64,000 nucleotides of DNA from Verrucomicrobiota bacterium (GCA_040387795.1 JAZKDC010000027.1:85845-149844), one strand, 5' to 3'. Shown: positions 1,237 through 14,100, counted from the stretch's first letter. Numbers and translations are program-made. Notes: a model not told the origin generated them from the sequence alone.

Positions 1237-2076
1237 CTAGGCCCGGCGGACGATGGCTTCGATCTGCCCATGGGGCTCATCGGTGGGGAGGAAGACCTCC
1301 CCGGCGTTTTCCCGGCCGAAAGGAGAGAGGTCGATCGGAAGATAGTGCTTGTTGGGCAGCTTCAGGGTGAGATGGGACAGGCCCGGAACCGCTTCGAGCG
1401 CGGCTTCGCCCATCTGGAAGAGGGTGCGCTGCACGGACGGGCTCCACGTGGTGGCATAGATGCGGAGAATGGCCTCCAGCACGGCAGCATTGGCCGCCGG
1501 GCCCGCTGTGACAGGGCTGGTATGGGTCCAGCTGGCCTCAATGCTGGTGGCCATGATGCGGTCGGCGGTTTCCGGCAGGGTGGTGAAATCACACTTCGGA
1601 TAACCGGCAAAACCGGATTCGGTGGTTTTCATCACCAGCAGGCCGGTGATGCCGGAGGAAATCACCACGACATCCCGCGTGCGGTGCAACGAGACGGTAG
1701 GATGGCCCTGCCCGCGGTCCACAAAGCTGTGCGCATGGGGCTGGCCACCAATCTGCATGCGCTGCCAGACCCGCTCGGACAGGTCCACATCCACGCCGGT
1801 GACATGGGCATATTTAATCAGAAAATGCTCCGAGATCTGCAGGGCGAAGGCCTCACTGTCTTCCGTCAGGAGATCCTTGGCGAGCACGTGGATGGTGTTC
1901 TTCACGGTATCGGTCGGAACCACCGGTGAATTGTCAGGTCCATAATGCGGTGCGGCAAACTCGCCATGCAGCAGGCAGCTGACCGTGAGTTCCTTGACGG
2001 CATGCCGGTCCGGCGTGCGGAAGACTTTGAGGACGCGGACGCGTTGCTTGCCGTAACGGTTTTCTGCGAGGATCAT
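1237..2076 (-). CDS. uox: Urate oxidase (uricase), tandem T-fold.
   Basis: ILAENRYGKQRVRVLKV... matches the uricase N-terminal YGK motif region, and the ~280-aa length fits the two-T-fold uricase family. The start is taken at the internal ATG (MILAEN, 2076) rather than the ORF-track ATG at 2124. This leaves a 62-bp divergent promoter gap to the OHCU decarboxylase gene. The alternative start at 2124 is not excluded. Confidence 0.8.
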   Translation of the reverse strand: MILAENRYGKQRVRVLKVFRTPDRHAVKELTVSCLLHGEFAAPHYGPDNSPVVPTDTVKNTIHVLAKDLLTEDSEAFALQISEHFLIKYAHVTGVDVDLSERVWQRMQIGGQPHAHSFVDRGQGHPTVSLHRTRDVVVISSGITGLLVMKTTESGFAGYPKCDFTTLPETADRIMATSIEASWTHTSPVTAGPAANAAVLEAILRIYATTWSPSVQRTLFQMGEAALEAVPGLSHLTLKLPNKHYLPIDLSPFGRENAGEVFLPTDEPHGQIEAIVRRA

Positions 2077-2138
2077 AAGCTGGTAATTGCAGGGTGTGAT
2101 GCTACCATGGCACAGATTCAGCAATAGTCGCGCCGCGC

Positions 2139-2657
2139 ATGAAACGAACTCCCGCCGAACTCAACGCCCTGCCGGCTGCGGAATTCACCGCGCTGCTGGG
2201 CGGAGTGTATGAGCATTCGCCGTGGATCGCGGAAAAAGCCGCCGGCCGCCGGCCCTTTGCGGCTCTGACTGAGCTGAAGGCAGCGCTGCAGGACGTGGTG
2301 GATGCCGCGCCGGAAGAGGCCCAGCTGGCCCTGATCCGCGCCCATCCGGATCTGGCCGGGAAGCTGGCGCGCCTCGGCCAGCTGACGCCGGAATCCACCC
2401 GCGAGCAAACCGCCGCTGGCCTGGACGCGATGTCACCCGGGCAGTTGCAGGCCCTGACTTCCGCCAACCAATCCTATCACGCCAAATTCGGTTTTCCTTT
2501 CATCATCTGCGCCCGCCGGCATTCGACAGAATCCATCCTCGAAGCCATCGCGGACCGCCTCCAGCACGATGCCGCCACGGAACGGGCGGCGGCTCTGGAG
2601 GAAATCCACCACATCGCCCAACTCCGTCTCGACGACCTGATATGTCCGGAAAACTGA
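2139..2657 (+). CDS. uraD: OHCU decarboxylase (2-oxo-4-hydroxy-4-carboxy-5-ureidoimidazoline decarboxylase).
   Basis: The 172-aa protein has [13 protein letters not shown] (the family AHP motif) and SPWIAEKAA, and the size is typical of UraD. It sits divergent to uricase and upstream of HIU hydrolase. Confidence 0.8.
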
Positions 2658-2992
2658 CCACCCACGTGCTGGATACCGCCCATGGCCGCCCGGCCAACGG
2701 CATGACCATCGATCTGATCGATCTGGCCACCGGCGGATTGATCACCACCATCCTGACCAATGTGGATGGCCGGGCGGATACCCCGCTGTTGTCAGGCGAA
2801 GCCATGCAGCCCGGATGGTATGAACTGCGGTTCCATGCCGGCCTCTATTTCGCGGAGATGGGCCTGCGCCTGCCGGACCCGCCGTTCCTGGATGTGATTC
2901 CGGTGCGGTTCGGGGTCGCGGATACGGAGGGGAATTACCACGTGCCACTGCTGGTCTCGCCCTGGGCCTATTCCACCTATCGCGGCTCATGA
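2642..2992 (+). CDS. uraH: 5-hydroxyisourate hydrolase (transthyretin-like).
   Basis: The 116-aa protein carries the C-terminal YRGS signature and [11 protein letters not shown], typical of the HIU hydrolase/transthyretin family. It overlaps uraD by 16 nt. Confidence 0.85.
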
Positions 2993-4224
2993 GAAATCCT
3001 GTCATCGACTTTGCAGCCAAGGCCCGGCAACTGGCGGACCGTCTGGAGGAACTGGGCCAGGTCTCGGATGAACCCGGGCGCCTCGTGCGCACCTTTCTGT
3101 CCCCGGCCTCCCTGCGGGCCAACGCGCTGGTCGGCGGCTGGATGCGGGAGGCCGGGCTTGGGGTCCGGGAGGATGCGTTTGGCAATCTCACCGGCACCCG
3201 GCCGGGCCCGGCAGGATCGCGCACCCTGGTGATAGGATCACACCTGGACACCGTGGTGGACGCCGGGCGTTTTGATGGCCCGGCCGGGGTCCTGCTTGGC
3301 ATTGCGGTGGCGGAAGCCTTGCCGGAGCTACCGTTCACGTTGGAGGTAGCCGGGTTTTCCGACGAGGAGGGCGTGCGGTTTCAAAGCACCTATCTGGGCA
3401 GCCGGGCCTACGCCGGCCTGATCACGGAGGAGGAACTGGCCCTTCGGGATGCGGAAGGAATTTCCGTCGGGGAACTGGTGGCTGCCCGCCGGGCGGCGGG
3501 GTTTCCTGACCAGCCGGCGGCGGCTCCGGATCTCCTGGGCTATCTGGAAGTCCATATTGAGCAGGGGCCGGTGCTGGAAGCGGCCGGCCTGCCCGTGGCA
3601 GTGGTGCCGGGCATCGCGGGGCAGACCCGGATTCTGGCAGGATTCACCGGCAAGGCGGGCCATGCGGGCACCACGCCCATGGCGCTGCGCCACGATGCCC
3701 TGACCGCCGCCGCCCGCGTGGTATTGGAAGCGGAAAGACTGGCGATGAAGCAGCCCCCGCTGCTGGCCACCGTGGGGAAACTGGAAGTGAAGCCGGGAGC
3801 GGGCAATGTGATCCCCGGACAGGTGACCTTTACGTTGGACGTGCGCCACCCGGACGATACCGCCCGGGAAAGTGCTATCACGGCGCTCCATGACTATGGG
3901 GAAACGCTGGCCTTGGAGCGCGGGCTGGCATGGCATTGGGAGATCAAACAGAACCATCCCGCCATGGCCTGTGACCCTGTCCTGATTTCATTGCTGGGCG
4001 CGGCAGTGGCGGCGGGCCAGGACGAGGTGCCTGCGATTTTCAGCGGGGCGGGGCACGACGCCGCGGTGATGGCCGCGGTCTGTCCGTCAGCCATGCTCTT
4101 TATCCGGTGCCGCGGGGGACTGAGTCATCACCCTGACGAATACGCCTCGCCCGCCGATCTCGCCGCAGCCCTGGAAGCAGCGGTCCGTTTTGTGCTGTCT
4201 CTAGCCGCCCACTCCCATGTTTGA
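2989..4224 (+). CDS. allC: Allantoate amidohydrolase / N-carbamoyl-amino-acid amidohydrolase (M20/M25/M40 family).
   Basis: The 411-aa protein has M20-family metal-ligand motifs (GSHLDTV, GFSDEEG, GAGHDA) and sits in a purine-catabolism context. Its start overlaps the uraH stop (ATGA). Confidence 0.75.
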
Positions 4225-5551
4225 CCTCCTGATCCATCACGCCGACACGCCGGACGGACTCTGTGATATTGCGGTCGCGGACGGCATGATCGTGGAAACC
4301 GGCCCTGCCCTGACCGGCCGCGCCCACGAAACCATCGACGCCTCCGGCCTGATGGTTTGGCCGGGATTTATCGATGCCCATGTGCACTTCAATGAGCCCG
4401 GCCGGACGGATTGGGAAGGTCTGGCCACCGGATCACGGGCGCTGGCCGCCGGGGGAGGCACGGCGTTTTTTGATATGCCCCTGAACTCCTCGCCCCCGAC
4501 CGCCAACGTGGCGGCACTGGCGGAAAAGCGGCGCTGTGCGGAGGCGGAGTCCGTGTTGGATTTCGGGCTCTGGGGCGCCCTGATTCCCGGCAATGAGGAG
4601 GACTTGGAACCCTTGGCGGAGGCTGGTGTGATTGGCTTCAAGGCCTTTATGTCGGATAGTGGGATCGACGAATTTCCCAGCGCGGAGGCGGCGGTGCTGC
4701 GGGCGGGGATGAAGCGCGCTTCGGCCTGCGGGCGGTTGGTGGCAGTGCACGCCGAAGACCGGGAACTGACCCGTCGGCTGGCGGCGGAAGCCAGAGCGGC
4801 CGGCCGGACTTCGGTCAGGGACTATCTGGATTCCCGGCCCGTCCAGGCAGAACTGAACGCCATCATTCTGGCCTCCGAGCTGGCCGGGGAAACCGGCTGC
4901 CCCCTGCACATTGTCCATGTCAGCTCTCCGGAAGGCCTGGCCATGATTGCTTCGGCACGGGCGGCCGGAGTGGATGTGACGGCCGAGACCTGCCCTCATT
5001 ATCTGCTCTTCAATGACAAGGATGGAGAGCGGATCGGCGCCCTGGCCAAGTGTGCCCCGCCGCTGCGCGATGAGGCGAGGCGGTTGGCGATGTGGCAGGC
5101 CCTGGCCGCAGGGGCTGTGCAAACTATCGGCACCGACCATTCTCCGGCTCCGATGGAACTGAAGCAATCAGCGGACTTTTTCAACGTATGGGGCGGCATC
5201 GCGGGCTGCCAGCATGGGTTTCCGCTGACGATTGCCGCCGGCTTGCAGGACCATGGCCTGACGGCGGCGGAGCTGTCCCCGCTGCTGAGCGGGAATGTGG
5301 CGGCGCGGTTCGGTCTGGCCGGCCGCAAAGGCAGGATCGCGGTAAACCACGAAGCCGATCTGGTGTTTTTGCGAAACGGCGTGGCCGACCGGATCGTGCC
5401 GGAGGCCTTGCTGACGAGGCATCCCTTGAGCGCCTACACCGGCCTGACCAACCGTTGCCGGGTGGTCCGCACCATTCTGAGGGGCCAGACCGTCTGGCCC
5501 CTGCCGGAAGGCACCCCGGCGCGGGGCGGACGATGGCTCCGGCCGGCATGA
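4217..5551 (+). CDS. allB: Allantoinase (cyclic amidohydrolase, dihydroorotase/hydantoinase superfamily).
   Basis: The 444-aa protein has GFIDAHVHFNEPGRTDWEG (the HxH metal motif of the amidohydrolase superfamily) and sits in the purine context. It overlaps allC by 8 nt. Confidence 0.75.
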   Translation: MFDLLIHHADTPDGLCDIAVADGMIVETGPALTGRAHETIDASGLMVWPGFIDAHVHFNEPGRTDWEGLATGSRALAAGGGTAFFDMPLNSSPPTANVAALAEKRRCAEAESVLDFGLWGALIPGNEEDLEPLAEAGVIGFKAFMSDSGIDEFPSAEAAVLRAGMKRASACGRLVAVHAEDRELTRRLAAEARAAGRTSVRDYLDSRPVQAELNAIILASELAGETGCPLHIVHVSSPEGLAMIASARAAGVDVTAETCPHYLLFNDKDGERIGALAKCAPPLRDEARRLAMWQALAAGAVQTIGTDHSPAPMELKQSADFFNVWGGIAGCQHGFPLTIAAGLQDHGLTAAELSPLLSGNVAARFGLAGRKGRIAVNHEADLVFLRNGVADRIVPEALLTRHPLSAYTGLTNRCRVVRTILRGQTVWPLPEGTPARGGRWLRPA

Positions 5552-5587
5552 ATTGCGGACCTGTCACCTCAGTGGTGGCAGTGCAAA

Positions 5588-6532
5588 TCAGCTCAAGGCC
5601 CCGCCGCAACTGCTGCCGGCGCCCGCGGTGCAGCCGAGGCAGTGATTGGCGGTGAGGATGTCGCATTGACCGATGCTTTCCGGGGTGACATCCCAAAGAA
5701 ATAACTCCTTCCCATGGCGGAGCTGCATTCGCAGCATCTGGTTGAAATCGCAGTCAAAGACTTCGCCTGCCATGCCGATGCTGATGGTGCTGCGGCACAT
5801 CAGGCCATCGACCGTGGCGGGATTGAAGTTGTCCGCCAACAAATCCATGTAACTATCCCATTGTCCCGTTTCGCGCAGGTCAGCGGCAAAGCGGGCAATG
5901 GGCAGATTGGTGATGGTGAAGAGGCGCGTGAAGACGATGCCATAGCGTTTTGCCAGCTCCTCCCTGTAGTCCGCTTCGAGTTCCGCCTGATCCGGCGGCA
6001 GCCTGGGGCCAAGCGGATTATAGACCAGCGTGAGCGGCAGTTTCGTGCCGTAGCCCACCGCATTGAGCTTTTTCAGGGCGCGGATGCTGCGGCGGAAGAC
6101 ATCGTTTCCCCGCTGGGCGTCCACATTTTCCTCGAGATAACAGGGAAGCGAGGCCACCACTTCCACTTGGTGCTCCGCCAGGAATTCCGGCAGCCAGGCG
6201 TGGGACTTCGTTTCGATGATGGTGAGATTATTGCGGTCAATCACGTGGCAACCGGCGCTGCGGGCGGTCTCTACGAAATAGCGGAAGAACTCGCTGAGTT
6301 CCGGGGCACCGCCCGTGATGTCCACCGTGGCCGGACGGTATTGCCTGATCCACGCGCCCACCTTGTGCGCGGTGGATTCATCCATCATCTCCGTACGATG
6401 CGGCCCGGCATCCACATGGCAATGCGTGCAGGTCTGGTTGCACTTGCGCCCGACATTGATTTGCAGGGTTTGGAAGACCCCGCGTTTCAGCGGGACACCG
6501 TGCCTGGCGAGTTGTTCCTGGAATCGGTTCAT
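5588..6532 (-). CDS. arsS: Radical SAM / Cys-rich C-terminal domain protein (ArsS-like; rSAM-selenodomain family, Cys form).
   Basis: CNQTCTHC (CxxxCxxC radical SAM cluster motif) lies near the N-terminus. The C-terminal domain is Cys-rich: CRSTIS...CDILTANHCLGCTAGAGSSCGG. It is the last gene of the operon with the ArsM-like methyltransferase. Confidence 0.75.
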   Translation of the reverse strand: MNRFQEQLARHGVPLKRGVFQTLQINVGRKCNQTCTHCHVDAGPHRTEMMDESTAHKVGAWIRQYRPATVDITGGAPELSEFFRYFVETARSAGCHVIDRNNLTIIETKSHAWLPEFLAEHQVEVVASLPCYLEENVDAQRGNDVFRRSIRALKKLNAVGYGTKLPLTLVYNPLGPRLPPDQAELEADYREELAKRYGIVFTRLFTITNLPIARFAADLRETGQWDSYMDLLADNFNPATVDGLMCRSTISIGMAGEVFDCDFNQMLRMQLRHGKELFLWDVTPESIGQCDILTANHCLGCTAGAGSSCGGALS

Positions 6533-6567
6533 GACGGAAATGCTGGGGGATCACGGCAACCAACCAA

Positions 6568-7023
6568 TCAGATCCGTTGCTCCTCAATGTCGTAGACATC
6601 GAACCAGACATACACCGGGCGGTTTATGCGGATGAATTTGGGAATGTAACCTTCGAGGAAAAGCTGGAGTTCCGGGGGCATTTCGCAGGGGCGGGTATAA
6701 CGCATCTTATTGTTCCAGAGCACCCGTTCCGTTTCGTCGGTGATTTTCGAGTGGGAGGTGATCCATTCCGCCACTTCCCCATCGGTGGCACCGGTGGCGA
6801 CAAATTCCTGGAAGGCCCCGGAGTCGATGCCGGTGAAGTCGAAGAAGGTGCGGTCCAGCGGGCAATCGAAGTGATATTCGCCAGGGGTGCCGGCGGCGAC
6901 AGCCCGGCATTTATCGAGAGTGCGGGCCGCAGCAACGTAACCGGCGAGCATCTCCCGCGGACTGCGGGGGAAGGTGATGGTCAGATCAGGGGCGAGGAGT
7001 TGGAGTTTTTCGTGGGGTTTCAT
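6568..7023 (-). CDS. Conserved hypothetical protein (151 aa) embedded in the arsM-arsS operon.
   Basis: The sequence is protein-like with no transmembrane segment and no recognisable motif. The gaps are 35-45 bp to the flanking same-strand genes, so it is probably co-transcribed. Confidence 0.5.
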   Translation of the reverse strand: MKPHEKLQLLAPDLTITFPRSPREMLAGYVAAARTLDKCRAVAAGTPGEYHFDCPLDRTFFDFTGIDSGAFQEFVATGATDGEVAEWITSHSKITDETERVLWNNKMRYTRPCEMPPELQLFLEGYIPKFIRINRPVYVWFDVYDIEEQRI

Positions 7024-7068
7024 GGATTTGGGGAATAAGGGTTGGTTATTGATGGCTTCAGGCCCCGC

Positions 7069-8247
7069 TCAGCAGCAGTCCGCCCCCGCACCGCTGTCGC
7101 AGCAATTGGAAGCAGCGGTGGTGGCGTGGTAGTCGAGGCCCTTGGTTTCCCTGGGATGCCGCAGGCGGGTGGTGGTGCAGTCGAAGGGGACTGTGGTGTC
7201 GGCGGGGACTTCGAGGCGGGGTCCGATGAATTCGAAAAAGCTCCGGTAGGGGGCTTTGTTGTAAAGCTGGAAGGTTTTGTCGCAGACCGCGTAGCGTTTG
7301 CCGCGTTCCATGGCGTGTCCGTCGTCGTCGAGCACTTTGAGGAATGGGCCTTTGTAGATCACCGCCTGGTTGCGTTCGAAGCACGGCCCTTGTTTCCCTT
7401 TCCATGCCTGCACGGTGACACTGCGGAACTCGATGCCTTTCACGGTCTGCCATGGTGCGGCATCGCGTTTCAGGATCTCAATGCCGTAAAATCCAGCCTC
7501 CCGAAAGGCTTGCAGAAATCCATCCTCGGTGAAGGCCCCGCTGATGCAGCCACTCCAGAGGACGGGATCTTTCTGCAGGTCCATGGGAATTTCCTCATCA
7601 CTGACGATGTCCGAGATGACGGCCCGCCCGCCATCTTTAAGCACCCGGAAGATTTCCTCGAAGAGGCGGCGCTTGTGCTGCGAATCCACCAGATTGAGCA
7701 CACAATTGGACACCACCACATCCACCGAGTCCGTGGCGACCAGCGGATGTTTCATCCGCAGGTCACTGGCCAACTCATCGGCGGCCAGAAAGGAAGCGGC
7801 GTCCTTGATGGGACGTTTTTTCAATTCAGCGTCGAGGATTTCAAGATCAAGCGCCAGATCCTGGATGCGCCCCTTGCGGAACTCCACATTCGCAAACCCG
7901 GTGCGCTCCGCCACAATGGGGGCATTGCGCCGCGCCACTTCCAGCATGTCATCGGTCATGTCCACTCCAATGACTTTGCCCGCCGCGCCCACCACCTGCG
8001 CCGCGATAAAACAGATTTTCCCGGTACCGCTGCCAAGGTCGAGCACGGTCTCGCCGGGCTGGAGATACCTGGAGGGATCGCCGCAGCCATAATCTTTCTC
8101 GATGACTTCGGCCGGGATGATTTTCAGATACTGCGGATCGTAGTCCACCGGACAGCACAGGGCGGCCTCGGGTGCTTTGGCCGCGGCGGCGTAGCGCTCG
8201 CGGGTAGCGCTTTCGGCGGAAGGCGTGACAGAAGAGGAAGTGCTCAT
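7069..8247 (-). CDS. arsM: Arsenite SAM-methyltransferase-like protein (ArsM family, class I MTase).
   Basis: The SAM-binding motif VLDLGSGTGKICFIAAQVVG is present. Conserved Cys pairs are ALCCPVDYDP and DYGCGDP at the N-terminus, and a C-terminal Cys cluster NCCDSGAGADCC. The 392-aa size and the adjacency to the ArsS-like rSAM gene are typical of the arsenosugar ArsM/ArsS pair. Confidence 0.8.
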   Translation of the reverse strand: MSTSSSVTPSAESATRERYAAAAKAPEAALCCPVDYDPQYLKIIPAEVIEKDYGCGDPSRYLQPGETVLDLGSGTGKICFIAAQVVGAAGKVIGVDMTDDMLEVARRNAPIVAERTGFANVEFRKGRIQDLALDLEILDAELKKRPIKDAASFLAADELASDLRMKHPLVATDSVDVVVSNCVLNLVDSQHKRRLFEEIFRVLKDGGRAVISDIVSDEEIPMDLQKDPVLWSGCISGAFTEDGFLQAFREAGFYGIEILKRDAAPWQTVKGIEFRSVTVQAWKGKQGPCFERNQAVIYKGPFLKVLDDDGHAMERGKRYAVCDKTFQLYNKAPYRSFFEFIGPRLEVPADTTVPFDCTTTRLRHPRETKGLDYHATTAASNCCDSGAGADCC

Positions 8248-8376
8248 GGGCGGGTTGAAAAGGGAGGACGGTCTCCGGGCATGCCACCCGGAGTCATTGA
8301 TGGATTAACGGGATTTTATCCGGCTCCCAAACATTTTTGTTGCGAACCTCCGGCGGCGGCTTCGCGCGTGGATCCT

Positions 8377-9666
8377 TCACCTCCACCCCGCCAGCCGCTG
8401 GGGGGAAATACCAAAGACGTAGCCTGCGAGGATCAATTGGTGGCGCAGGAAAGTGCACAACACTCCGCGCTGCTGCCAGCGGCGTGACGAAGTGAGCGCC
8501 GCCTCGGGTGTCGTGACGATGCGGCCATGCCCCCGCAGCCTGCGGACGAAGGCCACGTCTTCCAGAATGGGCCACTCCGGGAAACCCTGCAGGGCCGAAA
8601 AGAGGGAACGGCGGAGGAACAAGCCCTGATCCCCATAGGGCAGACTGCGGATGCGGCAGCGCAGGGCGACTCCCTTTTCGATCTGGCCAGCACCCCTGAA
8701 AGGTTCCCGCAGGCGGAAGGTGAAGGCTCCGGCGGCAGTGCCGGGGCTCATCAGGGTTTTCCTGATAATGTCAGGAAACGCGGCGGGCGGGTCAGTGTCG
8801 GCATGGAGAAACAGGAGAAACTCGCCCGTGGCCGTGGCGGCGGCGGCGTTCATCTGGGCGCCGCGGCCTTTGGCGGTGCGGACATGCCGCGCCCCAAACC
8901 GGGCGGCCACGGCTGCCGTTTCGTCGGTGCTGCCGCCATCGGCGATGATGATTTCATGAGGAGCAGCGGCGTTCAATGCGGGGAGCAGGCGGGCGAGGTT
9001 CGCGGCTTCGTTGAGAGCAGGAATGATGACGGAAACCGTCCCCGCGGCGTGGAGCGCCGCTTCGGCGGCGGGCAGGTCGGCGGGTTCATCCACATCCGGC
9101 AGCGTAGCGAGCAGGGCGGGTTCGTGTCCCATGGCCCGCGCGGCATCACACGAAGCGGAAAGCACCGCCGCGGTGCTCCACGGGATGTTTTCAAAGAGGG
9201 AGACCTGCGAAGGATGGGTGAGGGCGACCAGATAATAACCGCCATCCCCGGCGGGGCCGAAGACGATACCGTGACGGTGGGTTGCCGTGAAGGCGACCGC
9301 CAACCCCTCTTCCGTCAGCGAGGGGCAATCGCTGCCGATGATGACCACCCGGCCCGCCCCGGTCGCGAACGCCCGCAAGGCCGCCCGCCGGAGACGCTGT
9401 CCCAGATCACCGTCCCCCTGCTTCACAAAATCAAGTGGCCCCAGCCATTCCCTCATCCGTGCCGCATCGCCGCCTTCAAAAGCGATCGTGAGTTTTGCCG
9501 AAGCAATGGTAGCGCAAAAGCTCCACGCCCGGCCGACGGTCACTGCCGTCATACGGCGCTGCAGTTCCGCCGCGCCCTCCGCCCCCAAGGCGGGAATGAG
9601 CCGCGTTTTGGCCTGGCCCGGCTGGGGATAGCGGGTGAATACGATGAGGGCGGAGTGGCCTGACAT
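8377..9666 (-). CDS. Fused transferase: N-terminal DUF2064/TIGR04282-like 'transferase 1' domain plus C-terminal family-2 glycosyltransferase domain (TIGR04283-like 'transferase 2').
   Basis: The N-terminal half has SALIVFTRYPQPGQAKTRL (the DUF2064 signature). The C-terminal half has VSVIIPALNEAANL...IIIADGGSTDET (GT2 nucleotide-sugar binding). The two halves are normally separate genes linked to the rSAM/Cys-rich family. The start overlaps the DedA stop (TAATG). Confidence 0.7.
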   Translation of the reverse strand: MSGHSALIVFTRYPQPGQAKTRLIPALGAEGAAELQRRMTAVTVGRAWSFCATIASAKLTIAFEGGDAARMREWLGPLDFVKQGDGDLGQRLRRAALRAFATGAGRVVIIGSDCPSLTEEGLAVAFTATHRHGIVFGPAGDGGYYLVALTHPSQVSLFENIPWSTAAVLSASCDAARAMGHEPALLATLPDVDEPADLPAAEAALHAAGTVSVIIPALNEAANLARLLPALNAAAPHEIIIADGGSTDETAAVAARFGARHVRTAKGRGAQMNAAAATATGEFLLFLHADTDPPAAFPDIIRKTLMSPGTAAGAFTFRLREPFRGAGQIEKGVALRCRIRSLPYGDQGLFLRRSLFSALQGFPEWPILEDVAFVRRLRGHGRIVTTPEAALTSSRRWQQRGVLCTFLRHQLILAGYVFGISPQRLAGWR

Positions 9667-10412
9667 TACTGGGCAGAATCAGCAGCGGCGGCAGCAGGTG
9701 CCACCGGTTTTTCCACCGGCAGCCCTTGATCCCGCATCGCTTTTTTGGCCGCCTTGGTGATGAAGACGGTGACGGCCAGGGTGGCCAGCAAACCCACTCC
9801 GTAGAGCACCCATTCGAGGGGCGACTTCTCCCCGCCGCGGGCCCCGGCGCGGGCCAGGGACCCGAGATAGACATAAGCCAGGGTGGCCGGCAGCATGGCG
9901 GCCCAGGAGGCCACGATGTAGTGCAGAAATTTCACACGGGTGAGACCGAAGGCGTAGTTCAGCAGCGAAAAGGGAAACAGCGGGGACAAACGGATCAGTC
10001 CGACCAACTTCCAGCCATCGTCCCCGAAAGCGCGGTCCAGCGCGGCAAAGGCGGGGACGGTCCTGGTTTTCGCGGCAATGGCATCCCGGGCGAGGTAGCG
10101 GGCGATGAGAAAAGCCACTGCCGCCGCGGTGGTGGAGGCCAGGGAAACAATGATGGTGCCGTAAAAAACGCCGAACAGGGCGCCCGCCGATAGGGTCAGG
10201 GCCGAGCCGGGCACCATCAGCACGGCCGCAAGGATGTACGCCAGGGCGAAGACCACCGGGCCCCACGGCCCCAGTTTTTCCACAGCCGCGATGGCGCTGT
10301 TCAGCCAGCCTTTGGGATCGCCGAAGAGGAAGGCGCAGGCCACGGCCGCCATGAAGGCAACGATGAGCATGATCCTGCGGCGGTTGCCGCAAGCGGGGGA
10401 AGAGGGGGCCAT
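9666..10412 (-). CDS. DedA / TVP38-TMEM64 family membrane protein.
   Basis: It is multi-pass hydrophobic, and the motif region GSALTLSAGALFG...LIRLSPLFPFSLLNYAFGLT is typical of SNARE-associated/DedA proteins. It is the first gene of the five-gene minus-strand operon. Confidence 0.75.
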   Translation of the reverse strand: MAPSSPACGNRRRIMLIVAFMAAVACAFLFGDPKGWLNSAIAAVEKLGPWGPVVFALAYILAAVLMVPGSALTLSAGALFGVFYGTIIVSLASTTAAAVAFLIARYLARDAIAAKTRTVPAFAALDRAFGDDGWKLVGLIRLSPLFPFSLLNYAFGLTRVKFLHYIVASWAAMLPATLAYVYLGSLARAGARGGEKSPLEWVLYGVGLLATLAVTVFITKAAKKAMRDQGLPVEKPVAPAAAAADSAQ

Positions 10413-10461
10413 TTCGGGTAGACCGGCCGCAGCCGGGGGGAAATCCGGGTCCCGGGATTCC

Positions 10462-11151
10462 TTACTTCAGTTCCTTGATCCGCAGATTCCGGAAACGATA
10501 GGTGGCTCCCTTTTCCCCGTGGTGCTGGATGGCGATGGGGCCGGTGGCGTCGCGGTCGTCGGTGATGTCGGTGGTGGTGACGCCGTTGACTTCGATTTTG
10601 ATCTTGGAGCCGTCGCAGGTGATGCGGTAAGTGTTCCAGTCGTTGCGTTTGAAGGCTCCGGCGGAGCGCTCTTTGAAGGCGGCCTCGGAGGCGGCATCGC
10701 CTTTTTTCGGGCTGATGAACCACATCCGCAGGCCCTCGTCATACAGACCACCGGACCACATGCGGGCGACATCGCCGTCCACTTCGGCTTGGTAACCGGT
10801 GACGCTGTTGGGTTTCACCCGCCCCCGGAAGATAAACCCGCTGTTGGCCTTGCCCTCGGGGAGGTGGACATCGCCTTCAAAAATGAAATTGGCGTAGGGT
10901 TTTTCCGTGCAGAGGAAAAATTTCTTCTCGGCGGTGAGGTGGATTTCGCCGTTCACGACCTCGGCCTTGCCAAAAGTGTAGGGATTGGTCCAGCCCGCGA
11001 GGGTCTTGCCATCGAAGAGGGGGCTAAAGCCATCGGCGGCGGCCTTGGCGGCAGGCGCGGGTTCCTGGGCCGATACCGGCAGGACGGCCACGAGGGGGAA
11101 CAAGGCGGCCAAGGCGGAGGGAAGCAGCAGGGAAATTCGCATAATCCCCAT
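10462..11151 (-). CDS. Secreted DUF1080 (LamG-like, 3-keto-disaccharide hydrolase family) protein.
   Basis: Signal peptide MRISLLLPSALAALFPLVAVLPVSA. The DUF1080 hallmarks FSPLFDGKTLAGW, HHGEKG and the C-terminal FRNLRIKEL are present. Confidence 0.7.
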   Translation of the reverse strand: MGIMRISLLLPSALAALFPLVAVLPVSAQEPAPAAKAAADGFSPLFDGKTLAGWTNPYTFGKAEVVNGEIHLTAEKKFFLCTEKPYANFIFEGDVHLPEGKANSGFIFRGRVKPNSVTGYQAEVDGDVARMWSGGLYDEGLRMWFISPKKGDAASEAAFKERSAGAFKRNDWNTYRITCDGSKIKIEVNGVTTTDITDDRDATGPIAIQHHGEKGATYRFRNLRIKELK

Positions 11152-11395
11152 GATTGCCAGCCCGGGGACCGGGAATCAAGCTCATTTCCAGCCCCAGAAA
11201 TTCCGCAAATCCGGTCACACAATATGGCGCCGGGCCGACGCTTCCCGGTCGCCCGGACTGCCGCGGCATGATTCCTGCACTGATTTCCCTTGTTATTTTT
11301 ACCCAATCCCCCAAAGAGGGTCTTCTCTTTCGTCGTGGTTTCCCCTAGAGTCTGCGTGAAAATAGAATGATGATCCGGTTCAGGGGCATAACCAC

Positions 11396-12310
11396 ATGAT
11401 AGAAAATGACTTAAGGCCAAGGCTAATCAGTTTGACGGATGGATCCGAAGTGATCCTACCGGAGACGGCCATTTTTGGACGCAAGTCTGACAGCACCATT
11501 CCGCTCCCGGACAACCGGGTGTCCCGCCGCCACTCGATGATCCGTCGGCAGGAGGATGATGAATTCTGGTTTTACGATCTGGGCAGCTTCAATGGGAGCT
11601 ACATCAACGACGAGCGTGTCACCACCACCCGGCAGTTGGAACCGGGGGACATCATCCGGATCTGCGATTTCGAGTTCCGTTTCGAGCTGCCCCAGGCAGG
11701 TCTCCGGCCCGGCGGCGACGCTCAGGACATGCAGGTGGTGCCCATGCTGATCCTCGTCAGCGACATCAAGGGCTTCACCCGCCTCTCCGAAGTCCTCCCC
11801 CCGGACGAACTCGCCCAGGCCATCGGTTCCTGGTATTCCTACTGCGATCAGGTGCTGACCGAACACGGCGCCGCGATCGATAAATTCATTGGCGACGCCG
11901 TCCTTGCCTACTGGACGGATGTGACGCCGAATGCCCGGCAATGGGCGCTCTCTGCGGCCCGTTATCTGAGGGAAAGCTGCAGCCTGATCCAAGAGGAAAT
12001 GAAGTGGACTTTTGAACGTTACGACGTGGAATTCAGCAGCGGGGTCGCGCTCCACATGGGCGAAGTCTCCTGGGGCCAACTCGGCCAAGGGGGGCTCACC
12101 ATGCTGGGCGATGCGGTGAATACCACTTTCCGGATCCAGGCCCTGACCCGCCAACTCGGCAGCGATATCCTCGTTTCGGCCGACTTCATGAAAGGATGGA
12201 AGGACGGGATGAAACACGTGCGTTCCCTCGGCACCCATGCGTTGAAGGGCAAAGAAAACTCGGTGGGCATCTATTCTGTGGAAAGCGCTCCTGAACTCTT
12301 CGTCCGGTGA
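11396..12310 (+). CDS. FHA-domain adenylate/guanylate cyclase (class III nucleotidyl cyclase).
   Basis: The N-terminal FHA has FGRKSD...VSRRHSMI...GSFNGSYIN. The cyclase domain has LILVSDIKGFTRLSE, KFIGDAVLAYW and GLTMLGDAVNTTFR. Confidence 0.8.
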   Translation: MIENDLRPRLISLTDGSEVILPETAIFGRKSDSTIPLPDNRVSRRHSMIRRQEDDEFWFYDLGSFNGSYINDERVTTTRQLEPGDIIRICDFEFRFELPQAGLRPGGDAQDMQVVPMLILVSDIKGFTRLSEVLPPDELAQAIGSWYSYCDQVLTEHGAAIDKFIGDAVLAYWTDVTPNARQWALSAARYLRESCSLIQEEMKWTFERYDVEFSSGVALHMGEVSWGQLGQGGLTMLGDAVNTTFRIQALTRQLGSDILVSADFMKGWKDGMKHVRSLGTHALKGKENSVGIYSVESAPELFVR

Positions 12311-14100
12311 CTGATCCCTCGCTCCACCCCAAAAAGCGGGAAGGCTGGCTCGGTTTGAGCCTGACGGTGCTGCTCTGCCTTGGTTTCCTCTTCTGGTGGT
12401 TCCGGCCAGCCCGGGAAACCTGGATTCCCCACTCCACGGCGGAACTGGTTGGCCGTGCCCTGGCGGAGCCGAATCTGGACGCCCCCTTGGACCGGCTGGT
12501 GCTCGACTTCGACCTCATGGAGACGGCCATCCTCCAAGCCCGCCTCGCCATGGTGCCGGAAAGCCTCCAGACCGCCGGTTTCATCGCGGATCCCATCGTG
12601 CAGGCCCGCACCATCCGGCAACTCGCCCAGGCCCAATTGAATCAGGACGCCAAACAATTGAGCGAATCCCTCCGCATGTGCGACCGCATCATCGACGTGC
12701 CCCTGCGCGACCAGATGAAGGAGGAAATCCTGATCCAGCTGGCCATGCTGGGATTCTCCGATGTGGTGCTGCCGGAAGCCAAAACGCCTCTGCTCCGGGC
12801 CCGCGTCGCCCGCCGCCTCGCCGAAACCGACGGGCAGGACGTGGCCCGCACTCTGCTCGCGGAACAGGAAGCGCTCCTGCCCACCCTGCCGCCGGCCGAT
12901 GTCACCGCCTTGCTCCCCGAGTTGGCGTGGACCCGGGTGCAATTGGCCATCATTGACGGGCCGCATCAAGCCTTCGAGGCCATCCGCCGGGTCCCTGCAC
13001 CCGAACAGGACGCCCTTTGGCTCGACCTTTTCCGGGTCTGCTTCGGCCGGGGAGATACCGCCGCCAGCGATTCCGCCGCAGTCTCCGGCCAGATCACCGC
13101 CCCTGCCCTGCGGCGCCAGATTGAGCTGGAAGCCCTGCAATCGAACATCCCCCTGCGGCCCGCCGAGGCCATCCTCGCAGAGATTCAGGAGAAGCTGAAA
13201 GCGACGGCCCCCGGTCCGGAGCAAGTCCGTCTCCTCCTTGAATTGGCCGATACCCACCGCCGGGCCACCGGGCCGGAAGCCGCGGCCATTCCCCTCCGTT
13301 CGGCCTTGGAAGCCGCCAAAGCCCTGCCCGATCCCGTGCAACGCGCCACTCTGCTCGCCGAACTCACCGAACTGCTTCCCGACGCGCTGCTGTTCCCGGA
13401 ATCAAAACAGGCGCTGCAGGATGCCACCGAGGCTGCCCGCGGCATCATTGCTCCCGATCAGCGGCTGCCCCTGCTGGTTGTCATCCTGCACCACGCCTTC
13501 AACGCCGGCGAAATCCAGACCGCCGCCGCCCTCGCCTCCGAAGCCTTGGAAATCGCCCCCAAAGTCAAACTGTCGCCGCCCTTGGTGACCGAACTGGCAG
13601 AATTCCTCACCCGTCTGGGCGATTGGCCCGCAGCCCTCAGCCTGCTGCCCGAAGTCGAAACGAAAGTAGCCTCACCCCCGGATGCCCAGCCTTCCAAAAC
13701 CCCGGAGTCCGGGAATCCGGTCGCGTCCTCCCTTCCGGCCACGCCCGCTGCCGCCGCGACCGCATCTCACCGCCGCGCCCTGCTTGATGCCATCGCCACC
13801 ACCGCCGCCGAGGAAGCGATTGGCTACGACCCGGCGGCCCCACCCAACCGGGGCGAGCCGCTGGACCGGATCCGCAATCGGGCCATCTCCGACGAGCCCG
13901 CCGCCGCCTCGTATCTGCCGGGGATTCCTGCCGGTTACCAACGTGCCCGCGCCACCCTCGCCATCGCCAAAGGACTGCTCCTGCCTCCTATTCCTTCAGC
14001 GGAGACCCCACTGCCGACCGACCTGTCCGGTCCCCTCGACCTCCTTCCAGGTCAAAGTCCCGATATCCCCGTCATGCCGGAAGATCCGGAAGCGAAGTAG
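12307..14100 (+). CDS. Membrane-anchored alpha-helical repeat protein (hypothetical), translationally coupled to the FHA-cyclase.
   Basis: The start ATG overlaps the cyclase stop (ATGA). It has an N-terminal transmembrane helix (WLGLSLTVLLCLGFLFWWF) followed by a ~550-aa Ala/Leu-rich helical repeat region. The competing minus-strand ORF 12271..13341 is judged antisense. Confidence 0.5.
   Translation: MTDPSLHPKKREGWLGLSLTVLLCLGFLFWWFRPARETWIPHSTAELVGRALAEPNLDAPLDRLVLDFDLMETAILQARLAMVPESLQTAGFIADPIVQARTIRQLAQAQLNQDAKQLSESLRMCDRIIDVPLRDQMKEEILIQLAMLGFSDVVLPEAKTPLLRARVARRLAETDGQDVARTLLAEQEALLPTLPPADVTALLPELAWTRVQLAIIDGPHQAFEAIRRVPAPEQDALWLDLFRVCFGRGDTAASDSAAVSGQITAPALRRQIELEALQSNIPLRPAEAILAEIQEKLKATAPGPEQVRLLLELADTHRRATGPEAAAIPLRSALEAAKALPDPVQRATLLAELTELLPDALLFPESKQALQDATEAARGIIAPDQRLPLLVVILHHAFNAGEIQTAAALASEALEIAPKVKLSPPLVTELAEFLTRLGDWPAALSLLPEVETKVASPPDAQPSKTPESGNPVASSLPATPAAAATASHRRALLDAIATTAAEEAIGYDPAAPPNRGEPLDRIRNRAISDEPAAASYLPGIPAGYQRARATLAIAKGLLLPPIPSAETPLPTDLSGPLDLLPGQSPDIPVMPEDPEAK

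Follow-up and report, generated by a model that had tools for sequence, protein, structure and literature searches.

A 64,000-nt stretch of DNA from a Verrucomicrobiota bacterium (GCA_040387795.1, JAZKDC010000027.1:85845-149844; hereafter the window) carries at 5588-10412 a block of five minus-strand genes encoding a DedA-type membrane protein, a fused transferase, a methyltransferase, a DUF5069 protein and ArsS, an enzyme of the radical-SAM (S-adenosylmethionine) type. This block probably constitutes an operon that makes an organoarsenical of the arsenosugar type in a heterotrophic, non-phototrophic Verrucomicrobium, a reading drawn from sequence to which we assign a probability of roughly 0.72. 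A product of this type had been proposed in the original prediction, together with two computational findings that would speak against it, namely a radical-SAM protein outside the ArsS clade and a methyltransferase devoid of the ArsM catalytic cysteines. Neither was encountered, and the earlier reading is supported. The features of the block, all on the minus strand, are the following.

5588..6532, minus strand: radical-SAM enzyme ArsS, 314 aa, cysteine rather than selenocysteine (Sec) form (TIGR04167, PF04055, PF12345)
6568..7023, minus strand: DUF5069 protein, 151 aa (PF16798, 125.6 bits)
7069..8247, minus strand: homologue of BgArsM-type As(III) SAM-methyltransferases, 392 aa, carrying an insert of 37 aa and, at the C-terminus, a CC...CC tail
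8248..8376, minus strand: intergenic gap of 129 nt, the widest in the block (ORF listing and sequence)
8377..9666, minus strand: fused transferase gene, 429 aa, a single open reading frame (ORF)
8386..9036, minus strand: TIGR04283 GT2 glycosyltransferase domain, fusion residues 211-427
9073..9648, minus strand: TIGR04282/DUF2064 domain, fusion residues 7-198, with a predicted MobA/CofC-like nucleotidyltransferase-type GT-A fold
9664..9668, minus strand: TAATG stop/start overlap from DedA to the fused transferase, read in the sequence
9666..10412, minus strand: DedA/VTT-domain (TVP38/TMEM64-type) membrane protein, 248 aa, the first gene (PF09335)

The ORF listing reproduced exactly the coordinates of the five minus-strand genes, for which gaps of 1-130 bp and a TAATG overlap had been announced. 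The stop codon of the DedA gene (9666-9668) and the ATG of the transferase gene (9664-9666) have one base in common, the junction reading ...CAG TAA TG TCA GGC..., and the remaining gaps, from the transferase to ArsS, measure 129, 45 and 35 nt. The GC content of the block (59-67%) equals that of its flanks. Gene order and spacing are repeated on contigs of at least four metagenome assemblies, independent of one another, from the same or a sister species (L081-L084; individual loci are cited by such L numbers), and the arrangement is therefore not an accident of assembly. The block is a genuine, conserved and tightly packed gene set with a translationally coupled layout. An Rfam scan of positions 4500-12000 at E ≤ 1 returned no match, the sigma-70 promoter scan returned no site and terminator-like matches stayed at background level, so that no riboswitch, promoter or terminator is proposed; the 129-nt gap may hold an internal promoter or a regulatory site. 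At NCBI the five proteins bear consecutive accessions (MES2469999.1 to MES2470003.1); their contig, 171,786 bp long, belongs to a Verrucomicrobiota metagenome-assembled genome (MAG), and the Prokaryotic Genome Annotation Pipeline (PGAP) gives two of them 'arsenosugar biosynthesis' names. The locus is not new, and its core genes are recognised in public annotation.

The radical-SAM protein lies inside TIGR04167, an equivalog-level model, with 429 bits versus a cut-off of 300 and an alignment covering model positions 2-303 of 303; its identification as ArsS accordingly stands. Matches to PF04055 and to PF12345, the Cys-rich DUF3641 C-terminal domain (175 bits), were obtained as well. The CX3CX2C motif is formed by Cys31/35/38 and is invariant among 22 homologues, as are C246, C261, C298, C301 and C309. 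The NCBI entry (MES2469999.1) is named 'arsenosugar biosynthesis radical SAM (seleno)protein ArsS'. The search for homologues returned 8000 candidate proteins at E ≤ 1e-10, the best 120 of which are all at least 76% identical, and a match to two peptide patterns placed ArsS in at least 599 GTDB species spanning Verrucomicrobiota, Planctomycetota, Acidobacteriota, Nitrospirota, Binatia and several proteobacterial classes. Annotated ArsS proteins are found in Luteolibacter and Haloferula strains as well. The non-cyanobacterial background emphasized in the original prediction is thus correct as a setting and not special: since ArsS homologues abound in many non-cyanobacterial phyla, ArsS outside cyanobacteria is the rule and no exception. 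To our knowledge, dimethylarsenite, DMAs(III), is the sole ArsS substrate shown biochemically, and the formation of DDMAA (5'-deoxy-5'-dimethylarsinoyl-adenosine) has been shown only for the Synechocystis enzyme.

The five best PDB matches of the methyltransferase are all arsenic methyltransferases (E 1.5e-35). The catalytic set of CmArsM (C44, C72, C174 and C224) served as the test, and the PDB alignments place Cys55, Cys182 and Cys234 on CmArsM Cys72, Cys174 and Cys224. In BgArsM, the arsinothricin enzyme, the catalytic cysteines are residues 30, 54, 181 and 233 (PMC8552651); Cys31/32 of the window protein falls at the position of BgArsM Cys30, and the two proteins are considered colinear because of their cysteine spacing (31-32/55/182/234 versus 30/54/181/233), and the colinearity extends to an insert of 37 aa. 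All four catalytic cysteines are kept, as had been predicted, and together with the terminal CC they are invariant in 36/36 ArsS-adjacent methyltransferases from many phyla. The 37-aa insert, which classical ArsMs do not have, is found in the versions from Verrucomicrobiota, Planctomycetota, Acidobacteriota and Binatia and in none of those from Nitrospirota and Proteobacteria. The search with ArsM models suggested in the original prediction gave a divided result: the cysteines and the PDB matches are favorable, and the score remains under the cut-offs of all three curated models (NF040538, PRK11873 and NF038099; one equivalog, one subfamily and one exception). For this last reason the protein is filed as ArsM-like only, apparently of the BgArsM subtype and outside the three models. 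A side observation concerns the C-terminus, where the methyltransferases linked to ArsS share a conserved Cys-rich tail of the form ...CC-x6-8-CC (window 7069-7110). Its terminal CC, which none of the 36 homologues lacks, falls outside the set of four catalytic cysteines given for ArsM (PMC8552651). Residues C289, C322 and C357 of the C-terminal domain are also widely conserved.

On these homologies, at the level of catalytic residues for the methyltransferase and of the equivalog for ArsS, and on the published ArsS biochemistry, the first two steps of the pathway can be proposed as follows. The BgArsM-type enzyme would bind As(III) through its four cysteines and methylate it with SAM to dimethylarsenite. 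ArsS would then cleave SAM reductively at the [4Fe-4S] cluster held by its CX3CX2C motif and adenosylate DMAs(III), yielding DDMAA. We consider this sequence of events likely.

The closest precedent is the arsM-arsS gene pair of Synechocystis sp. PCC 6803, whose arsenosugar function was reportedly established by Xue in 2019 and whose ArsS chemistry was reportedly worked out by Cheng in 2021. In both organisms an ArsM-type methyltransferase accompanies a TIGR04167 ArsS and the expected route is As(III) to DMAs(III) to DDMAA; the two genes, co-transcribed there, are presumably co-transcribed here as well. Unlike its Synechocystis counterpart, the present methyltransferase is of the BgArsM-like subtype, contains the 37-aa insert and reaches 139 bits against a cut-off of 400 on the AsSugarArsM model. 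A DUF5069 gene is moreover inserted between methyltransferase and ArsS, the transferases and DedA are part of the operon, and the host is a non-phototrophic Verrucomicrobium. The arsinothricin genes arsQML of Burkholderia gladioli share the methyltransferase subtype (best NCBIfam match NF040538) and the pairing of an ArsM with a radical-SAM enzyme that forms a C-As bond. They differ in that this enzyme is there the Dph2-like ArsL, which transfers an ACP (3-amino-3-carboxypropyl) unit, instead of ArsS, which transfers 5'-deoxyadenosyl; in addition, the window operon contains no ArsQ permease and its methyltransferase scores 343 bits versus a cut-off of 500. An ArsSM fusion protein is reported from a paddy-soil sulfate reducer by Yang et al. 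(2024, in ES&T, a paper known to us by its title alone). Judging from that title, ArsS and ArsM are coupled outside cyanobacteria there too, in one protein and not, as here, in separate genes with DUF5069 between them.

The fused transferase (MES2470002.1, 'TIGR04283 family arsenosugar biosynthesis glycosyltransferase') unites two families that had been predicted as catalogued partners of ArsS, and both identifications hold. Its N-terminal half matches TIGR04282 with 193.8 bits versus a cut-off of 134, PF09837 with 114 bits and, more weakly, CofC; its resemblance to PDB 3CGX has an E value of 5.6e-22, and the motifs K19-T20-R21-L22, G110-x-D112-x-P114, D140-G141-G142 and D190-x-D192 are kept (comparison with 20 ArsS-linked homologues). 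The C-terminal half matches TIGR04283 with 232.4 bits versus a cut-off of 182. Among solved structures it comes closest to glucosyl- and mannosyl-3-phosphoglycerate synthases and to dolichol-P-mannose synthase, and the kept residues D243, R268, H288-A289-D290, G345-D346 and E369-D370 include the acidic motifs of the GT-A fold. Catalytic motifs are thereby retained in both domains. The two families were formerly called rSAM/selenodomain-associated transferases 1 and 2. With TIGR04167 they form the 'arsenosugar biosynthesis' set of NCBIfam, all three members of which are found here above cut-off and in adjacent genes, as in many genomes; the window departs from this set by the fusion of the two transferases into 429 aa, and the arsenosugar assignment of these families rests on association. 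Near ArsS, TIGR04282 and TIGR04283 are usually separate genes. The fusion order of the window (8377-9666), TIGR04282 followed by TIGR04283, recurs in a Planctomycetaceae locus (L025:10932-12266), and the reverse order is found in a Granulosicoccaceae MAG (L072:1520-2860). Independent fusions in both orders and in different phyla argue for a coupled function of the two domains, which would act together.

The DedA protein (MES2470003.1, 'TVP38/TMEM64 family protein') scores 88.6 bits on PF09335 against a gathering score of 33.9, and neither an NCBIfam model match nor a PDB relative was found for it. The original prediction had listed DedA too among the catalogued partners; for this label no NCBIfam model match is available, and the frequency of DedA near ArsS is given by the following census.

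In order to place the operon among comparable loci, hidden Markov models built from the window proteins were scanned over 80 ArsS loci, taken at species level from Verrucomicrobiota, Planctomycetota, Acidobacteriota, Nitrospirota, Binatia and Proteobacteria. An ArsM-like methyltransferase is present within 3 kb of ArsS in 30/80 loci; at the same distance, TIGR04282 or TIGR04283 is present in 24/80 (18/80 within 500 bp), DedA in 16/80 and DUF5069 in 2/80. Most DedA genes near ArsS either form a fusion with, or stand just ahead of, a gene for a class-I pyridine-nucleotide disulfide oxidoreductase (Pyr_redox_2 with dimerisation domain), as in L011:11000-13314, L070:10735-13098, L055, L056, L059 and L061. 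PHO4 phosphate/arsenate-type transporters occur near ArsS in about 10/80 loci and also beside DUF5069, and in an Akkermansiaceae MAG (L002) a MIP aquaglyceroporin gene lies between methyltransferase and ArsS at 9177-9983; further transporter genes in ArsS, ArsM or DUF5069 neighbourhoods are located at L085:7478-8590, L046:9977-11089 and L172:7478-8638. ArsR, ArsC and Acr3 are not recurrent among the 150 nearest ArsS neighbours. ArsS neighbourhoods are modular and arsenic-consistent, with ArsM, transferases, DedA and PHO4 in varying combinations, and in the window such a neighbourhood takes an unusually complete and compact form.

The 151-aa protein had been left without a family in the original prediction. 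The protein stands as described and its family could be found: it exceeds the gathering score of PF16798 (DUF5069), a family with a solved structure, and bears the name 'DUF5069 domain-containing protein' at NCBI. Its fold match is PDB 3OMD from Leptospirillum rubarum, with 34-36% identity and an Ala at the position of Cys39. In the closest clade, DUF5069 comes directly after the same ortholog of the methyltransferase, whether or not ArsS is present. The order methyltransferase-DUF5069-ArsS is shared by the window and L081-84, PHO4 is intercalated before ArsS in L085/86, DoxX follows DUF5069 and ArsS is missing in L087/88, and DUF5069 again follows the methyltransferase ortholog in L092/93. 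This position is a feature of the closest clade only, and an 80%-identical protein occurs in an unrelated context (L171).

The wider neighbourhood of DUF5069 was surveyed in 80 metagenome loci (53-78% identity). An AhpC/TSA redoxin lies directly upstream in about 10/80 and a VTT(DedA)-rhodanese fusion occurs in 5/80; such redoxin or VTT-rhodanese neighbours are located at L099:967-1686, L173:5988-6953, L172:5847-6563 and L165:2187-3152. The redoxin is fused to HEAT in L172 and L173, and the latter locus unites the arsenic and redoxin themes in the order methyltransferase...HEAT-AhpC/TSA redoxin-DUF5069-ArsS. Cys39 and Cys54 are conserved in 88/90 clade members, whatever the arsenic context. 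An As(III)-binding triad made of Cys39, Cys54 and Cys113 was considered and set aside, position 113 being Cys in 29/90 and Ser in 48/90. As DUF5069 adjoins AhpC/TSA redoxins elsewhere, a thiol-redox helper is suggested, and the data hint weakly at a general dithiol/redox-type protein recruited beside ArsM in this clade. The catalytic cycle of ArsM forms a disulfide that needs re-reduction, and a 'disulfide-bond cascade' is reportedly the subject of a paper that we know from a reference list alone. Neither the link of DUF5069 with ArsM nor its association with redoxins was found described in the literature searched. For the family as a whole, the redoxin and rhodanese neighbours hint at a role in thiol or sulfur redox chemistry. 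Two variants were noted besides: a second, divergent copy (L087:2695-3159; 30% identity, without Cys39 and Cys54) 4 kb from the methyltransferase-linked one, and a cyanobacterial protein with tandem DUF5069 domains beside a HxlR regulator (L089:3353-4103, P0157).

For the later part of the pathway, neighbourhood and fold suggest that the fused transferase may turn the ribosyl unit of DDMAA into a glycoside. Adenine could be removed by a housekeeping 5'-methylthioadenosine (MTA) phosphorylase or nucleosidase, which is proposed since DDMAA is analogous to MTA. The CofC/MobA-like domain would then produce an intermediate activated with a nucleoside diphosphate, and the GT2 domain would move it onto an acceptor of the glycerol-, glycerate- or lipid-phosphate type. 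Recurrent adjacency to ArsS, the fusions in two orders and the naming by the curators speak for an action on the ribosyl moiety of DDMAA, to which we grant slightly less than an even chance. From context, DedA might flip a lipid-linked intermediate or move substrate or product across the membrane. DUF5069, an accessory rather than a core enzyme in this proposal, might act through Cys39 and Cys54 as a thiol-redox helper of the methyltransferase, for instance in disulfide re-reduction or As(III) handover. These two roles range from doubtful to rather unlikely. The complete pathway announced in the original prediction was not borne out: no adenine-removing enzyme is encoded, and the pathway is for that reason not demonstrably complete. 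Its statement that only the first two steps are biochemically understood agrees with the literature searched, in which no test of a later step was found.

A number of observations weigh against the arsenosugar operon. In 22/80 loci, methyltransferase, transferases, DedA and DUF5069 are all missing within 3 kb of ArsS. A nucleosidase or phosphorylase is neither present in the operon nor recurrent among the 150 nearest ArsS neighbours. The genes arsR, arsC, acr3 and other resistance genes are absent within about 10 kb of the operon, and a search through the entire window gave neither PHO4 nor DedA's Pyr_redox partner. The methyltransferase stays below each ArsM cut-off (NF040538 343/500, PRK11873 210/263, NF038099 139/400 bits) and is named by PGAP merely 'methyltransferase domain-containing protein'. 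As 75/80 of the DUF5069 metagenome loci lack an arsenic-module neighbour and only 5/80 have one, the role of DUF5069 here may be incidental. Finally, a literature search that covered few subscription journals yielded no assay of TIGR04282 or TIGR04283 and no experiment on this locus, this DedA or DUF5069.

The 129-nt gap is a further point of this kind, as it could divide the block into two transcription units. It would then separate two adjacent modules, with the methyltransferase, DUF5069 and ArsS producing DDMAA or methylated arsenic, and DedA and the fusion belonging to a cofactor-type or envelope-glycoconjugate pathway. TIGR04282 and TIGR04283 do resemble CofC and MftF, which are enzymes of cofactor pathways, and a 5.2-kb contig (L167) carries DUF5069, Pyr_redox, TIGR04283 (T83) and DedA without ArsS. 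The methyltransferase, a transferase and DedA, furthermore, are all found within 10 kb in only 4/80 ArsS loci, namely L023 (Bythopirellula), L056 (a betaproteobacterium), L070 and L080 (Methylotetracoccus). However, the 18 loci mentioned above with a transferase no more than 500 bp from ArsS belong to unrelated phyla and often lack the methyltransferase; the five genes share one strand, the gap contains no terminator-like site, and both transferase families are linked to ArsS by the NCBIfam curators. A division into two modules is judged improbable on this balance.

The order of the first two steps could also be reversed, as in arsinothricin synthesis: ArsS would first adenosylate As(III) or methylarsenite, MAs(III), and the BgArsM-type enzyme would then methylate the adenosyl-arsenical. 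The colinearity with BgArsM is compatible with such an order, as is the preference of the methyltransferase for the arsinothricin ArsM model (343 bits) over the cyanobacterial arsenosugar model (139 bits). BgArsM itself methylates the product of the radical-SAM step that forms the C-As bond (PMC8552651). On the other hand, the characterised ArsS prefers DMAs(III). Since ArsM enzymes in general take both inorganic and organic trivalent arsenicals (PMC8552651), the subtype of the methyltransferase leaves the order of the steps unfixed, and the reversed order is regarded as quite improbable beside methylation first. That another metalloid (Se, Sb or Te) is the substrate, giving for example a selenium- or antimony-containing ribosyl compound, is very improbable: TIGR04167 was first defined by frequent selenocysteine and by 'selenodomain' partners, its model name keeps '(seleno)protein' and the operon flanks are free of arsenic resistance genes, but the Sec/Cys position is an enzyme residue and no evidence of a selenium substrate, DMAs(III) is the one substrate shown for ArsS, the methyltransferase has the As(III)-binding cysteine set of ArsM, and PHO4 and the MIP channel recur near ArsS.

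The surroundings of the operon comprise the following genes.

1237-2124, minus strand: uricase
2989-4224, plus strand: M20 allantoate-amidohydrolase-like gene
4217-5551, plus strand: allantoinase-like amidohydrolase, convergent with ArsS across a 36-nt gap
10462-11151, minus strand: secreted DUF1080/3-keto-disaccharide hydrolase gene, 49 nt upstream of DedA
11396-12310, plus strand: FHA-domain adenylate/guanylate cyclase
12307-14100, plus strand: 597-aa protein without Pfam match, directly after the FHA-cyclase

A purine-catabolism set (1237-5551) thus adjoins the operon on the far side of ArsS, and within the 36-nt gap there is an imperfect hairpin (CTGCCACC-ACTGA-GGTGACAG) that lacks a T-run. 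Past DedA lie the secreted DUF1080 protein, the FHA-cyclase and a CDF transporter. In L081-84, the sister contigs, the DUF1080 gene keeps its position upstream of DedA, and it may share the operon's transcript; it was tried as a sixth operon member and dropped, its family accounting for only 2/150 of the nearest ArsS neighbours with no recurrent cluster. The pair formed by the FHA-cyclase and the 597-aa protein is likewise kept beside the operon in the sister contigs.

The value of this locus, already annotated as arsenosugar-related, is that of a testable gene set and not of a discovery. The route from DDMAA to arsenosugars or arsenosugar lipids is still described in outline only, and 4.8 kb hold here two known enzymes along with the best downstream candidates, one fused transferase and one membrane protein, in a compact operon convenient for the heterologous reconstitution of post-DDMAA chemistry. 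The occurrence of ArsS chemistry in many non-phototrophic phyla bears on which organisms make arsenosugars in soils, freshwater and food webs. In its most extended form, our reading would make DUF5069 a dithiol partner of redoxins and of ArsM, serving the BgArsM-type methyltransferase as disulfide reductant, As(III) donor or arsenate reductase, and would have the fusion and DedA carry DDMAA on to a membrane-associated arsenosugar or arsenosugar lipid. This combination is unlikely; if true, heterotrophic Verrucomicrobia would count as a hitherto overlooked origin of arsenosugars in the environment, and the missing post-DDMAA enzymes would be supplied.

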